The notes under the pieces are model-generated. The model was not told where the DNA came from. It worked only from the letters and a program-made list of their open reading frames with translations, and searched no databases. The position numbers and the translations under genes were made by a program. From sequence record PZ402300.1: a stretch of DNA of 64,000 bases; one strand, 5' to 3'. Numbering within the stretch: position 1 is the first letter of the stretch; each line of letters begins with the position of its first letter. This document shows positions 52,369 through 57,015 of this stretch, piece after piece. This DNA comes from a phage.

Positions 52369-52413
52369 ATCAATTTCCTCATAAGTAAATGGCAGAGTTA
52401 GTATACATGACAG

Positions 52414-52444
52414 ATAAAAAAATAAACCCACCTAGTGGTGGGTT
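52414..52444 (-). terminator. Rho-independent terminator
   Basis: Minus strand AACCCACC-ACUA-GGUGGGUU followed by U-rich run. Confidence 0.55.
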
Positions 52445-52658
52445 AGCTATTTACACAGTAAATAGCAAAAGCTATCCATCCTGTCATTACAAAGCAACCA
52501 AGTGAGTATGCCCCATAGTAGTAGTAAGCAAACTTAGACTTGTGGGCACGGACTATTGTAGTCAGAACCAGTACAGATAAAGCTATCAGTATTAACTGAA
52601 AGATTACTTCAAAAGTGATTAGCATAGTTGCTACCTCCAAGCAAAAAATATGCCTCAC
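52443..52658 (-). CDS. Small membrane protein (2 TM)
   Basis: 71 aa; hydrophobic segments. Confidence 0.4.
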   Translation of the reverse strand: MRHIFCLEVATMLITFEVIFQLILIALSVLVLTTIVRAHKSKFAYYYYGAYSLGCFVMTGWIAFAIYCVNS

Positions 52659-52676
52659 TCCCGAAGGAATGAGGCT
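52643..52676 (-). terminator. Rho-independent terminator (UUCG loop) after the RNAP II large-subunit gene
   Basis: Minus strand GCCUCAUUCC-UUCG-GGAGUGAGGC followed by AUAUUUUUUGC. Confidence 0.55.
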
Positions 52677-52682
52677 AGTTTA

Positions 52683-52796
52683 TTAACTTAATGCATAATC
52701 TGTTTCAAGGATGTCCTGCCAGAGGCTGTCATCCAGCTTACCAGCAGAGAACTCTTGTCCCAGTACCTGAGTCAGGATGAATCCCAGTAAGTCACT
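52683..52796 (-). CDS. RNAP II large subunit, exon 3 (C-terminal segment ending …WQDILETDYALS); 5' boundary uncertain (alternative exon start 52898)
   Basis: C-terminus aligns with T7 RNAP C-terminal …LRDILESDFAFA; lies in track ORF 52683..52979 whose N-terminal part overlaps the HNH ORF and is presumed intronic. Confidence 0.45.
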   Translation of the reverse strand, partial: SDLLGFILTQVLGQEFSAGKLDDSLWQDILETDYALS

Positions 52797-53839
52797 CTTA
52801 GCAATGTCAGACAGAATCTGATTGTACTGACGACGCAGGTCATTACCGTAGTTAGGATGGCATCTAAAACCATTAGTTAAACGAGTCGTTAGCTCGCCCT
52901 TACCTTCCATGATTAACATGGAAGCCATACGTAGCATCTGCTTCTTTACGAGCAAGCATTGCCTCCTCAAGTGTGTCATACGTACCCAGACCGATCTGTT
53001 TACGATTGACTGTGATGTGTGCCTGGAATCTACCAGAAGGTAATATTCTTACACCATTCACTTTGCTTGATGTATTACGTGATAAACCCATATTCATCTG
53101 GTTCTGTCTACTGGTTACATTTCTCAGATTAGACCAACGGTTGTCGTTTCTAATGTGATTGATGTGATCCACCTGGTTAGGTGTTTCCCCTGTTTCCATT
53201 ATCCAGATTATTCGATGCAGTAAGTACTCTTTACGACCCAGACTAACAGATAAATAGCCTTCTTTGTGAGGATACCCCACAATTGTTCCGGCTAATCCAC
53301 TAGCAGAGTCGTAACGATGAGTTACTAGCCCACTTTCTCTGTCATACCGTAAAACCTTCTTCAAAGATTCTTGGGTAATAGTATCCAAGTCTTTTATCAG
53401 GTTCTTACAGGTAGGACATAGGTGGCCTATTGGACTCTTTTTAGCATCATAGAAGTTGCAAACAAACTCACTAGAGCATTGCTTACAACTACAGATAGCT
53501 GTGTACTTACCAGTTTTACGTAATATTTGGGAGTTATCTAACATATGGATTCCTTAGTAATTTTGCATACAATTTCAGATTGTATCCTAACCAAGGAAGT
53601 AAGTCTCCAGTTTTCACTGGAGTATCGGACTATATCATCACCCACTAATCAGTGGGGCAAGGCGCTTGGGTGGTCACTTGACTCACCTACTCTACTCACA
53701 TACGAAATGTTTTCGATAGTCTCTGAACCTTCCCTCATGGAGGGCTTGGCTGCTGATTGGCATATCCATAGGACTTAGCTTTCCAGCAATTCACCTTGTT
53801 TTCGACACGGATTACTCCGTGAAGGATCATTTATGTTTA
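52797..53839 (-). mobile_element. Group I intron 2 (approximate boundaries) carrying an HNH-AP2 homing endonuclease gene
   Basis: Minus-strand core elements AAUUGCUGGAAAGC (P-like), AAUCAGCAGCC (Q-like), GGUUCAGAGACUAUCG (R-like, 53714-53729) and GAUGAUAUAGUCCGAUAC (S-like, 53622-53639); begins with UAA directly after the exon-2 …VHD codon; P1 not identified, 3' end could be 52899 instead. Confidence 0.55.
52900..53544 (-). CDS. HNH homing endonuclease with C-terminal AP2-type DNA-binding domain (intron 2-encoded)
   Basis: 214 aa; HNH motif VDHINHIRNDNRWSNLRNV; AP2-like region VNGVRILPSGRFQAHITVNRKQIGLGTYDTLEEA. Confidence 0.7.
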   Translation of the reverse strand: MLDNSQILRKTGKYTAICSCKQCSSEFVCNFYDAKKSPIGHLCPTCKNLIKDLDTITQESLKKVLRYDRESGLVTHRYDSASGLAGTIVGYPHKEGYLSVSLGRKEYLLHRIIWIMETGETPNQVDHINHIRNDNRWSNLRNVTSRQNQMNMGLSRNTSSKVNGVRILPSGRFQAHITVNRKQIGLGTYDTLEEAMLARKEADATYGFHVNHGR

Positions 53840-54446
53840 ATCATGTACAGTCATTACAGGGAATGGCTTCTTAGGTAAAGTATTGAGCATAGTCAGGATT
53901 ACATCTGTATCAACCAATGCAATGGTTTCTGAGTCCAGATAATCAAAGATACGGGTAGACAGAAAGCCTGATTTCTCATAGCTAGCCCACAGTGTATTAA
54001 CCGTTTCATGACTAGCACCAGGGACAACTATGTATTCACCAGTTCCTTCACAGAGGGACTTAATATAGTTCACCTGGTTCACGTTGAAGTTACAACGACG
54101 CAGCATCTCACGTACCACCATCCCATCAATAGAGTGAGTGATGTTAGCAGAGAGCATACGGGTCTTCTCTTCAGTACCCTGAACCATACGAGTGATGTCG
54201 AATGGCTTACCTAAGAAGTTAACAGTCTGTACTTCAGGAACCATGACCTTAATGACAGCATGGAAGTTGTCAGGAAGTACCCATACGTAACGGTTAGCAT
54301 CAGGATTACCACATTGCAGTAAGAACTTGTTAAGTGCCCAAGGACCACTAGCAACAGTTTCCATTACATTCTCAAAAGTCTTGAGACGAATACCTTCACC
54401 GAATACTTCTTTAGGCTTGGCTTCTGAGCCGTAGAATGCAGTCATA
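53840..54446 (-). CDS. RNAP II large subunit, exon 2 (motif B second half through motif C region)
   Basis: Track ORF 53837..54445 (MTAFYGSEAK…VMTVHD); TAFYGS aligns to T7 RNAP TLAYGS (Y639); TLWASYEKSG aligns to T7 TVVWAHEKYG. Confidence 0.7.
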
Positions 54447-55253
54447 CATTATGTTCAAGGGAGGTCGTTAGTCTCCCCCAGCAGCTTTACCTGCATCTCA
54501 CTGTTACCAGTGAGTTCGGACTATATCATCTAGACTGATAGTCTAGCCGGGCGCTTCGACCCACTTGGGCCTACTCTACTAAGTTCAGCTTTCGCTGCTT
54601 TTCGATAGTCTCTGCACCTTTTGGTTATTCAAAACAGCATCACACATATCAATAAAGTCATTGGTTGAGAGGTCACCCTTTGCTCGGTTTACACACCAAG
54701 CTAACCATTGAACATTACCAATACTGTATCCTTTACTTGGTTCTATCTGATCTAGTGATAGACACAAAGGATGCCCCGATTCAATTACTAAGGTTGCTCC
54801 AGTTAAAGCACATTTAAATTCCTGTGATTTAAGGATTTCAAATAAATACTCTACTGTACAATCTGGCATAGGCTTACCAAACTTTTTACACCGACTTCTT
54901 GCATCCTTTAGTCTATGGGAGACTGCGGAATACCATTTACGGTGTTCTTTTGGTATTGCTTTACGAACTCCAGTTCCATTGTAACCTGGGTTCTTTTTAC
55001 GCCATTCACGAGCTACAGCAGCCTTACAGGGTCTGCAACGATTCTCGTAATTAGTTTTGAATCCTGTGAGTGATTTTTTAGTCTCTGGGAATACTTCGAT
55101 AGGAAGTAATTTTTTACATCGACTACATGTTTTGAATTCTGACATAGAATGCTCCTTATTGAACTTTCTACGCTACCAACTTGGCTCATGATTGTCCACT
55201 AGGGATGTTCCATGAGTTCACCCGGTTTTAAGGCCGCCATGACTTAAAGGTTA
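54447..55253 (-). mobile_element. Group I intron 1 (807 nt) carrying an HNH/His-Me-finger-like endonuclease ORF
   Basis: 5' exon ends GGCCGU paired with intron GCGGCC (P1, U-G at splice site); intron AGUCAUG pairs with exon-2 start UAUGACU (P10); terminal G at 54447; R-like GGUGCAGAGACUAUCG (54602-54617) and S-like GAUGAUAUAGUCCGAAC (54514-54530). Confidence 0.75.
54585..55145 (-). CDS. Intron 1-encoded putative homing endonuclease (zinc-ribbon N-terminus, degenerate HNH/His-Me finger core)
   Basis: 186 aa; CSRCKK…CRPCK Cys pairs; LSLDQIEPSKGYSIGNVQWLAWCVNRAKGD resembles an HNH-type nuclease core. Confidence 0.5.
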   Translation of the reverse strand: MSEFKTCSRCKKLLPIEVFPETKKSLTGFKTNYENRCRPCKAAVAREWRKKNPGYNGTGVRKAIPKEHRKWYSAVSHRLKDARSRCKKFGKPMPDCTVEYLFEILKSQEFKCALTGATLVIESGHPLCLSLDQIEPSKGYSIGNVQWLAWCVNRAKGDLSTNDFIDMCDAVLNNQKVQRLSKSSES

Positions 55254-55675
55254 ACGGCCTGCTTAGTGTCACTACGCTTAATACGTGATGCTTCACCAAG
55301 GATGTCCAGCATCTTGTGATAGATAACTGTATAGGCATCACGGCGTAATGGCTTACCATTCTCATCCATGTAGTTAACTACGTTACACAGTTCAGCAGCA
55401 GAGCGGTCACCAGTCAGACAGGCCAGTAACTGTAAGCCTGATGATGTAGCATCCAGAGCTACAGCATAACCAATAGGCTTACCTGCTTTCATATCTTTCC
55501 ATGCATTTACACCTGCAAAGAACAGAGCAGAATCCTCTGCTTCATCTACCAGATTAAGCAGGTTAGCTTCATTCTCATCGAACCAGGCAATACGTTCATC
55601 CCATGTCTTTTTATCTAAGCCATAGTTATTAGCGATATCTACTTTCAGGTATTCACGAGCGGTTAACAGTTGCAT
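55254..55675 (-). CDS. RNAP II large subunit, exon 1 (motif A through first half of motif B)
   Basis: Track ORF 55244..55675; ALDATSSGLQLLACLTGDRSAA aligns to T7 RNAP [22 protein letters not shown] (D537); ends RSDTKQAV. Confidence 0.7.
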
Positions 55676-55882
55676 TTTATGTTCCTTTTGCTTCTTGGCT
55701 CCCCACTATGGAGAGCCTGCTTATTGGATGATTAGGCAGTTACTACGTCAGCAGATAGTTTATAAATAATGGTTTTACTCTCAGGGTTTTGAAGCTTGTA
55801 AAGTTTCGCAAAGTATAAGCACTTCACATATGTACCCGAGTAGACACACTCCTCATTAACCCATAGCTCATAGGAGCCAATG

Positions 55883-56701
55883 TTAGTCTTCATTTACTAA
55901 CTCCTTATCAGCGAACTCCAGTACAGCTTTGTTGTAACTGGTTCCCTGATAGTTGATGTGGTAGCCACAGGCATAGGTACGCCCACGTTTGTCGTATTTG
56001 TGAGCTAAGGAGAAGTTATTACCTTCTTTGGTCACTAGCTCCATTACTTCCTTAGCTGTACGGCTGTACTTCTCAAAGGCTTTAACACGTTTTTCATAGT
56101 CCTGACGGGTTTCACCTTCTTTAGGTTTATCCATGTTAGGACGAGAGTCTTTTACATAATTAGCAACGTCCCAGTTAATGCAGAGACGTTGGTTATTCAT
56201 GCGGTTGATGTGGTCAAGACAGACATCCATCTCATGATGGTTCTTCTTGAGGATGATGCTACCTCTGCTTTCGTAGTAACCAGTATCACGATTACACTTA
56301 ACAGGCTTAGGAGCACTTACGATAGGCAATGGATACTGGAATGCTTCCAGTTCCATCTGTACATCTTCACTAATCTCATAGATAACACCTAACTTGTCGA
56401 TGGTAGGGTCATAGTTGAAGCAGTCATTCTCTGCCATCTTATACAGACAGTCAGCAATGTACTGAGCATCATCTGAATGACTCATGAGAGAGCCAATCAT
56501 AGTCTGGATGTCAGCACGCTTATGTAGAGCAATCTGCACCATTGCATCAATGAGCAGCTTATAATCAATTTCCAAATAGGCAGCAAAAGCCTTAAAGTCA
56601 ATTTCTTCGGAGTCCTCGAATTCCTTCCTCATGCGAGGGAGTAATTGATTCTTGTTGAAAAGGATTTCAAGTCGCTTCTGATGTTCAATAGATGAGTACA
56701 T
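55883..56701 (-). CDS. RNAP II small subunit (N4 gp15-like; N-terminal portion of a split T7-like RNA polymerase)
   Basis: 272 aa; C-terminal KYDKRGRTYACGYHINYQGTSYNKAVLEF aligns to T7 RNAP DWRGRVYAVSMFNPQGNDMTKGLLTL. Confidence 0.65.
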   Translation of the reverse strand: MYSSIEHQKRLEILFNKNQLLPRMRKEFEDSEEIDFKAFAAYLEIDYKLLIDAMVQIALHKRADIQTMIGSLMSHSDDAQYIADCLYKMAENDCFNYDPTIDKLGVIYEISEDVQMELEAFQYPLPIVSAPKPVKCNRDTGYYESRGSIILKKNHHEMDVCLDHINRMNNQRLCINWDVANYVKDSRPNMDKPKEGETRQDYEKRVKAFEKYSRTAKEVMELVTKEGNNFSLAHKYDKRGRTYACGYHINYQGTSYNKAVLEFADKELVNED

Positions 56702-56754
56702 CGCTTATTCTCCTAAATGTGATTAATAACCGAAAGCTGCGGAGCAGCTATTAC

Positions 56755-57015
56755 CTAACGCTTAGTCCAAAAGGCAATACGAATGCTGTTCTCTTGACCA
56801 AGATAGTTGATACGTACATATAATCCATTACCATTAAATTCTTTTCTTTTTTCCTGATAAGGCCATACCAGACTACGCATAGGTATATTAACAAAACCTG
56901 ATATGTGACCTAACTTAGTACGACCTTTTAGTTCGTTTTGTAATGCACAATAGATGTCATGTCGTGTGAGTGCTCTGGCTCTGACTTGAGCAGACCACAA
57001 TTCTTCATATGTCAT
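56755..57015 (-). CDS. Hypothetical small protein
   Basis: 86 aa ORF. Confidence 0.4.
   Translation of the reverse strand: MTYEELWSAQVRARALTRHDIYCALQNELKGRTKLGHISGFVNIPMRSLVWPYQEKRKEFNGNGLYVRINYLGQENSIRIAFWTKR

Follow-up and report, generated by a model that had tools for sequence, protein, structure and literature searches.

The stretch of phage DNA analyzed here, which we call the window, is 64,000 nucleotides long (record PZ402300.1), and our subject is an insertion in its gp16 gene, which encodes the large subunit of the N4-type heterodimeric middle RNA polymerase (RNAPII). The source phage is a Gamaleyavirus (G7C/N4-like) coliphage: megablast of positions 52400..56800 against GenBank phages matched 67 records, none covering more than 70% of the query, and these are mostly Escherichia and Shigella phages, with classified Gamaleyaviruses (G7C-like Schitoviridae, relatives of N4) among them. 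Every gene in this region is encoded on the minus strand. In the intronless phage St11Ph5, gp15 (RNAPII small subunit) and gp16 measure 819 and 1218 nt, respectively. The window carries an uninterrupted gp15 (55883..56701), and its gp16 homology falls into three blocks (55784..55252, 54446..53841 and 52862..52417) with two insertions between them.

The gp16 gene of the window consists of three exons: exon 1 (55254..55675), exon 2 (53839..54446) and exon 3 (52683..52870, stop codon included). The first two are colinear with St11Ph5 gp16; exon 2, also colinear with the N4 polymerase structure described below, ends …PFPVMTVHD plus the U of a Cys codon, and exon 3 reads …CFRCHPNYGNDL…DILETDYALS*. 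Joining 55675..55254, 54446..53839 and 52870..52683 produces a 1218-nt open reading frame (ORF) of 405 codons, and the 405-aa product equals St11Ph5 gp16 in length, is colinear with it and shares 88.7% identity. An earlier analysis of the same letters, referred to below as the sequence-only reading, had placed the polymerase C-terminus on a third exon, and this is borne out: the frame ends …SLWQDILETDYALS, with its stop at 52683, and the product is colinear with gp16. The range that had been given for the second intron, 52683..53839, combined the intron proper (53838..52871) with exon 3 (52870..52683).

Comparison with a crystallized relative supports the same three-exon arrangement. Residues 1-405 of the spliced product align with residues 1-404 of N4 RNAP2 (PDB 6DT7 chain B) at E 4.4e-192, so that the alignment to the N4 polymerase proposed in the sequence-only reading runs from end to end. 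It is continuous over both junctions, including …TVHD|CFRCHPNYG, and pairs KQAVMTAFYGS with KQAIMTALYGS at motif B and TVHDCFRCHPNYGND with TVHDCFRCLPNYGND at motif C. We take VMTxxYGS to be motif B (T7 K631…Y639) and HD to be motif C (T7 H811-D812). A companion alignment to T7 RNA polymerase (RNAP) had also been proposed, but phmmer of the spliced protein against the PDB (E≤10) matched N4 RNAP2 as its sole hit and did not reach T7 RNAP; the motif-C equivalence to T7 H811/D812 thus rests on published N4 work and on background about T7 RNAP. The Lenneman and Rothman-Denes review (PMC4496689) maps the T7-like polymerase motifs A, B and C to gp16. The Pfam RNA_pol match to the spliced protein, limited to residues 8-148, crosses junction 1 and scores 54.2 bits, compared with 42 bits for exon 1 alone.

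Ribozyme core and predicted splice junctions of intron 2

The second insertion (53838..52871, minus strand, 968 nt) is very probably a mobile, self-splicing group I intron of subgroup IA type, carrying an HNH endonuclease within gp16. The Rfam model Intron_gpI (RF00028) matches 53848..53605 on the minus strand with 92.8 bits (E 1.5e-22; gathering score 50) over its full length, model positions 1-253, and the matched segment holds the ribozyme core P1-P9 and 10 nt of exon 2. Within this match lie all four elements that the sequence-only reading had named on the minus strand, P (AAUUGCUGGAAAGC), Q (AAUCAGCAGCC), R (GGUUCAGAGACUAUCG) and S (GAUGAUAUAGUCCGAUAC), and that reading's assignment of a group I intron to motif C is upheld by the Rfam score, by covariation and by the colinear spliced product. 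In the Rfam alignment, an insertion of ∼50 nt separates the P7 5′ strand from the P3 3′ strand and corresponds to P7.1 and P7.2, the latter a hairpin (GGUG-A-GUC…GAC-CACC) at 53669..53687. P7.1 and P7.2 are a hallmark of subgroup IA, which includes the T4 introns, and it is this insertion that places the intron in subgroup IA.

The same intron occurs in Escherichia phage vB_EcoP-ZQ2 (99.0% identity over the whole 968 nt) and in Shigella phage Moonfish (94.4%); no other phage among the 67 related records, in which ZQ2 is present twice, carries it. The orthologous RNAP2 gene is interrupted by homologous introns, each followed by a homologous ORF of ∼210 aa, in the genomes of Pseudomonas phage ZC08 (Zicotriavirus; Rfam 88.9 bits), of Erwinia phage MIF8 (Efbeekayvirus; 94.4 bits) and of the IMG/VR contigs L053, L063 and L072/L073. 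The last two (3300011253_000949 and 3300011254_000585) are metagenomic and N4-like, and their gp16 is 42-54% identical to that of the window. The ZC08 intron, with its endonuclease gene, occupies the identical codon position (GAC U|GU UUU). The MIF8 intron (L005 2980..4030) lies 3 nt further downstream (HDA-F|…) than the introns of the window, of ZC08 and of the IMG/VR contigs, after the first base of a Phe codon and not in the Cys/Ala codon; the intronless phage EK8 (CAT GAT GCG TTT GGT TGC CAT) bears out this offset, which looks like a one-codon shift of the insertion site between homologous introns.

We aligned eight homologous ribozymes with MAFFT and evaluated ten hand-written helices comprising 49 pairs, with the P3/P7 pseudoknot included; P5a, P6a, inner P8 and P7.1 were excluded from the formal count because their MAFFT columns were out of register. 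Standard pairs occupy 97.2% of cells, and 21 of the 49 pairs are compensatory, with both sides changed. None of 500 shuffles reached the observed values, and when the partners were slid by 1-3 columns, pairing fell to 27-45% with 1-3 compensatory pairs. In P7.2, six of the seven pairs change on both sides. P7.1, assessed by eye only, is variable among the homologues, and compensatory changes in the variable hairpins, such as P5a (GUCC/GGAU vs GGUU/AACC), were likewise seen by eye only.

The junctions of the intron follow from alignment to intronless alleles. Six such Gamaleyavirus alleles read …ATG ACT GT(A/G) CAT GAC TGC TTC CGT TG(C/T) CAT CCT…, and the window reads …ATG ACT GTA CAT GAT T[intron]GT TTT AGA TGC CAT CCT…; the intronless site sequence is …CATGACTGCTTCCGTTGCCAT… and the intron-plus exon junction is …CATGATTGTTTTAGATGCCAT…. 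Only one in-frame join gives back His-Asp-Cys-Phe-Arg-Cys-His, and it puts the splice sites after U53839 (GAU U|AAAC) and after omega-G52871 (…CUAAUG|GUUUU), which delimits the intron to 53838..52871. The predicted ligated-exon sequence is …CATGATT|GTTTTAGATGCC…. The intron accordingly splits the codon that follows the motif-C His-Asp (…GAU U|GU UUU…, HD C F, in frame), and both canonical rules hold, with U before the 5′ site and G as the final intron nucleotide. The homologous introns end …AAAUG, …AGAUG and …AAGUG.

These assignments revise parts of the sequence-only reading. It had exon 2 end in …VMTVHD with an intron beginning UAA directly after it; GAT at 53842..53840 does close …VMTVHD and TAA does follow, but the U is the last exon nucleotide and the intron starts AAAC…. 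Its two candidates for the 3′ site, 52899 or near 52797, were both wrong, the intronless alleles placing the site at 52871|52870, and exon 3 begins not with SDLLGF… but with GU UUU AGA UGC (…C F R C H P N…).

It had also found no convincing P1, yet a clear P1 hairpin is present at 53825..53842: GAUU|A (53842..53838) pairs with the guide UGAUC (53829..53825), with U53839·G53828 as the splice-site wobble. The splice-site U·G is present in eight of eight sequences (alignment columns 10/21), and three of the five P1 pairs covary with the exon sequence (GAU-U with UGAUC, GAC-U with GGUC, GCG-U with UUGCGC). Directly 5′ of the guide G, as read from the sequence, AAAU (53832..53829) is able to pair with the exon-3 start GUUU to form P10.

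An in-frame stop codon (U|AA or U|GA) spans the 5′ splice site in all eight motif-C introns (53837..53839 in the window). The first intron nucleotide covaries with the guide (A-U in four, G-C in four), so that both the stop codon and the P1 pair are preserved. In unspliced RNA, translation would stop exactly at the exon 2-intron junction.

At its other end the intron has a 29-nt tail (52871..52899), made of a P9.2-like hairpin, CGAG-CUAACGA-CUCG (52896..52882), followed by UUUAACUAAUG, which ends in omega-G. The stem of this 3′-terminal hairpin covaries among the window, L072, MIF8 and ZC08, and its loop, (C/G)UA(A/G)CG, is conserved.

This structural evidence bears directly on a different account of the locus, in which a free-standing homing endonuclease split gp16 and the fragments are translated apart and assemble without splicing, as for NrdA/mobE of Aeromonas phage Aeh1. 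Such an account would fit the GenBank records of ZQ2, Moonfish, ZC08 and MIF8, which list separate 'RNA polymerase' coding sequences (CDSs) on both sides of the HNH gene, as well as the make-up of N4 RNAPII, a heterodimer that already consists of two T7-RNAP fragments (PMC4496689), and the ZC08 paper calls the interruption an 'HE insertion' only (PMC5418858). However, a complete, covarying ribozyme core lies exactly at the break in gp16, and P1 both pairs and covaries with the last exon nucleotides. Moreover, the break separates the catalytic Asp from the remainder of motif C, and exon 3 opens in the middle of a codon: the sole ATG available to it (98-aa ORF, 52683..52979) sits within the endonuclease ORF, in a different frame, and would add unrelated residues. 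We therefore find a gp16 assembled from separately translated pieces scarcely credible, and retain the self-splicing group I intron as the interpretation of this insertion.

The predicted intron-encoded endonuclease and signs of mobility

The homing endonuclease gene (HEG) of intron 2 (52900..53544, 214 aa) lies wholly inside the intron, after P9/P9.1, and its product has an N-terminal Cys-rich segment, an HNH core and a C-terminal AP2-like segment predicted to bind DNA. Pfam HNH_3 matches the ORF at 1e-15 (57.5 bits, cut-off 24.8) and was matched in five of five homologues; in PHROGs the ORF matches phrog_99, 'HNH endonuclease' (1e-58). Identity to the window ORF is 94% in Moonfish, 51% in L072, 49% in ZC08 and 43% in MIF8, and the pattern DH..H….NRW.NLR……N..N, together with the C-terminal block, is invariant across ORFs of three genera that are 43-51% identical. 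A profile built from five ORFs matches I-HmuI, the SPO1 intron nickase (1U3E), at E 2.5e-4, and plant ERF AP2 domains at E 0.006; in the PDB, the AP2 domain of ERF096 was matched at E 0.006-0.012. AP2 itself was detected in three of the five homologues at E≤0.01, with a best value of 8.3e-6.

Upstream of the ORF, the minimum free energy structure from RNAfold contains a P9.1-like hairpin (53550..53598) whose 3′ strand holds the Shine-Dalgarno sequence AAGGA (53555..53551). In all six folded sequences (the window and five homologues), either the Shine-Dalgarno sequence or the start codon is predicted to be hidden in a hairpin at the P9.1 position. The buried Shine-Dalgarno sequence of the window ORF resembles the translational masking of T4 intron ORFs, whose ribosome-binding sites Gott et al. 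reportedly described in 1988 as buried in RNA structure.

Conservation between the window and ZQ2 differs between the intron and the exon sequence beside it. Identity is 99.3% in the ribozyme, 98.8% in the HEG and 100% in the tail, but only 75.8% over the adjoining 400 nt of exon 2, and 94.7% in exon 3; an intron at 99% beside an exon at 76% points to recent transfer. A second sign lies in the exons themselves: within 12 nt of the insertion site, five synonymous substitutions (GAC TGC TTC CGT to GAT TGT TTT AGA) distinguish the intron-bearing alleles from the six intronless ones, and Moonfish has a subset of the five. These substitutions provide the P1 and P10 complementarity, and they probably also shield the intron-bearing allele from its own endonuclease.

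Taken together, the features of the locus are compatible with the following sequence of events. By analogy with N4 early genes, gp16 would be transcribed early; the ribozyme core would then fold, and P1 would offer the U53839·G wobble to an attacking exogenous guanosine. P10 (AAAU/GUUU) and omega-G52871 would position the 3′ splice site, ∼730 nt downstream of the core, and exon ligation would give back …TVHD-CFRCHPNYG… and with it the 405-aa polymerase subunit. In RNA that has yet to splice, the stop codon over the 5′ splice site (U|AA) would halt translation at the junction. The endonuclease ribosome-binding site would be buried in the P9.1 stem. During a mixed infection, the enzyme may nick or cut intronless gp16 near GAC TGC TTC CGT, by analogy with I-HmuI and PhiPA3 gp210, and repair from the intron-bearing genome would copy the intron in (homing).

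Several points weigh against this interpretation. We infer splicing, endonuclease activity and the cleavage site of intron 2 alike from the sequence. Three of the eight aligned ribozymes (window, ZQ2 and Moonfish) are near-identical, so that the covariation represents ∼5 independent lineages, the others being MIF8, ZC08, L053, L072 and L063. P9.0, in which the two nucleotides preceding omega-G would pair with J7/9, fits the window and L072 (AU/AU) and MIF8 (GU/AC), and ZC08 misfits. A search of the core for a partner of the terminal loop (C/G)UA(A/G)CG found no complementary CGUUA-like segment. Recombination inside exon 2, rather than homing, could be the source of the mismatch in identity between intron and exon. 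Finally, the AP2 domain (PF00847) matches the 214-aa ORF at 1.4e-4 and 22.5 bits, below the curated cut-off of 33.3; of the HNH plus AP2 ORF that had been proposed at 52900..53544, the ORF and its HNH domain are present and the AP2 domain is a tentative assignment.

This sub-threshold AP2 match could also be read as a trace of decay, with a ribozyme that still splices, as phage viability requires, an endonuclease that is inactive, and an intron inherited only vertically. Decay of the HEG is the expected end of the homing cycle, and the activity of the ORF is here a prediction from its sequence. The pattern of conservation and distribution argues otherwise: the endonuclease ORF is intact in every complete-locus copy, homologues from three genera, 43-51% identical, all keep the HNH catalytic residues and the AP2-like block unchanged, the intron is sporadic among close relatives (two other phages among the 67 records), and the disparity between intron (99%) and neighboring exon (76%) points to recent transfer between genomes. 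An inactive, vertically inherited element is therefore improbable, and we continue to regard intron 2 as mobile.

Intron 1 and comparison with known systems

Intron 1 of the same gene (54447..55253, minus strand, 807 nt), with junctions defined by intronless alleles and the colinear splice, interrupts motif B (KQAV|MTAFYGS) by splitting GCC GU|U AUG, with a P1 formed by GGCCGU/GCGGCC. It encodes an EndoVII-like endonuclease ORF of 186 aa (54585..55145, minus strand; phrog_1035, 1e-31). Its Rfam matches are below threshold (36.1 and 16.7 bits) because this ORF sits in the P6 region; in the Rfam scan of the whole window (E≤0.01), introns 1 and 2 were the only introns matched. Intron 1 has no E. 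coli phage carrier in the GenBank phage collection; homologues at the same codon occur in Burkholderia phage HN02 (L086) and Achromobacter phage JWAlpha (L087).

The sequence-only reading had called the two introns related, and for the 3′ half of the core this is so: 93 of 140 aligned columns are identical, in long common blocks, and intron 1 closes (54462..54481, minus strand) with the same 3′-terminal hairpin module, loop (C/G)UA(A/G)CG, as intron 2. The relationship does not extend to the overall architecture, since the ORF lies in the P6 region of intron 1 but after P9 in intron 2, and the endonuclease families differ too. In L072/L073, an interruption of similar size (876 nt) occupies the motif-B site; with interruptions at both the motif-B and motif-C positions there, the two-interruption arrangement is not unique to the window phage.

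Close known parallels are the IA2 introns of T4 nrdD (sunY, with I-TevIII), td and nrdB and of the SPO1 DNA polymerase gene. Intron 2 resembles them in having P7.1/P7.2, U·G at the 5′ site and omega-G, in its location at a conserved catalytic motif of an essential gene of nucleic-acid metabolism, and in an ORF placed outside the core. Michel et al. are said to have reported in 1992 that the sunY ORF lies 3′ of P9, which leaves the 3′ splice site far from the core. In contrast to the T4 and SPO1 introns, the host gene in the window encodes a subunit of a T7-like RNA polymerase of single-subunit type, and its intron carries an endonuclease with HNH plus AP2-like parts, not one of GIY-YIG/I-TevIII type. 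The assignment made here is to subgroup IA as a whole.

The nearest functional analogue of intron 2 is the intron of PhiPA3 gp210, an HNH endonuclease that nicks the intronless allele of a co-infecting competitor phage (Birkholz et al. 2024, PMC11620839). Both are HNH genes in a group I intron (putative in PhiPA3) of a phage RNA polymerase gene, directly after conserved aspartates of the catalytic region. They differ in that PhiPA3 is a jumbo phage and its gene encodes a β-like subunit of a multisubunit RNAP, whereas the gene in the window encodes a T7-like palm/fingers subunit of an N4-like podophage known from sequence. I-HmuI (SPO1, PDB 1U3E) is likewise encoded in a phage group I intron and aligns with the HNH core, at the E value given above; the similarity spans only ∼85 residues, and the window ORF differs in its AP2-like C-terminus and Cys-rich N-terminus. 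HNH-AP2 endonuclease genes are a recognized class in T4-related phages (Petrov et al. 2010, PMC2993671; Magnani et al. 2004 cited there). The genes of that class, in T4-related and other phages, combine HNH with AP2, as the window ORF with its tentative AP2 match would, but the table in PMC2993671 lists them in a column apart from intron-encoded endonucleases, whereas the window gene is intron-encoded.

Interruptions of gp16 have been noticed before, both in ZC08 RNAP2 (PMC5418858) and as cases of 'gp16 split into two genes' (Lenneman and Rothman-Denes 2015, PMC4496689); these papers speak of an HE insertion or a split gene and identify neither a group I ribozyme nor splice junctions. Elsewhere in N4-like phages, an intron has been described in the thymidylate synthase gene (PMC5746245) and introns have been suspected in other genes (PMC3670811). 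In the literature on N4-like phages that we searched, we found no description of a ribozyme or of splice junctions in gp16.

Implications and other features of the region

As a type, the element is a textbook one, in which an essential phage gene is interrupted at a catalytic motif by a group I intron that encodes an HNH homing endonuclease, and it reveals no new mechanism. Its recognition matters first for annotation: ZQ2, Moonfish, ZC08 and MIF8 (motif C) and JWAlpha and HN02 (motif B) list gp16 as two or three 'RNA polymerase' fragments plus an endonuclease, and these entries call for correction. The split gp16 genes, an unexplained oddity in the 2015 review, become intron-containing genes with definable junctions. 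In GenBank/RefSeq, exon 3 appears as an 81-aa (246-nt) 'RNA polymerase' CDS in ZQ2 (L004 1380..1625) and Moonfish (L002 3701..3946). The start of this CDS, at an out-of-frame ATG within the endonuclease gene, is an artefact that arose because the intron was not recognized.

The list of essential phage genes colonized by homing introns now extends to the T7-like RNA polymerase family. In addition, Gamaleyaviruses with and without the intron make it practical to study homing, the co-conversion of markers and competition mediated by the endonuclease in E. coli. A broader proposal, which we put forward tentatively and regard as possible but doubtful, is that a pair of homing introns, spread throughout the family, targets the two catalytic motifs (B and C) in the middle RNA polymerase of N4 type and circulates among the Schitoviridae of Escherichia, Shigella, Erwinia, Pseudomonas, Burkholderia and Achromobacter. 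Under the same proposal, the motif-C HNH-AP2 enzyme might also serve as a weapon, nicking the intronless gp16 of a rival N4-like phage and crippling its middle transcription, as PhiPA3 gp210 acts against PhiKZ, and these might be, as far as we found, the first group I introns described in a gene from the single-subunit (T7-like) RNA polymerase family.

The polymerase gene also shows variation of a separate kind. A patch of exon 2 (∼53880..54085, minus strand; gp16 residues 262-331) exists as two strongly divergent alleles with ∼72% nucleotide identity, which occur among Gamaleyaviruses that are otherwise 90-95% identical and are unlinked to the presence of the intron. We considered this patch, which is 33-73% identical to St11Ph5 per 30-aa block, as a co-conversion tract and rejected that explanation: many phages that lack the intron (HK2, PGN829.1, U1G and others) have the window allele, at 87-91% identity, and the intron-bearing ZQ2 and Moonfish hold the alternative allele, not that of the window. 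The patch is a local recombination mosaic inside the polymerase gene.

Directly 3′ of the gp16 stop codon lies a hairpin resembling an intrinsic terminator, followed by a T-run (52652..52675, minus strand). Far from this locus, the window also holds two adjacent tRNA genes (25093..25247, minus strand), with Rfam scores of 64.8 and 42 bits.

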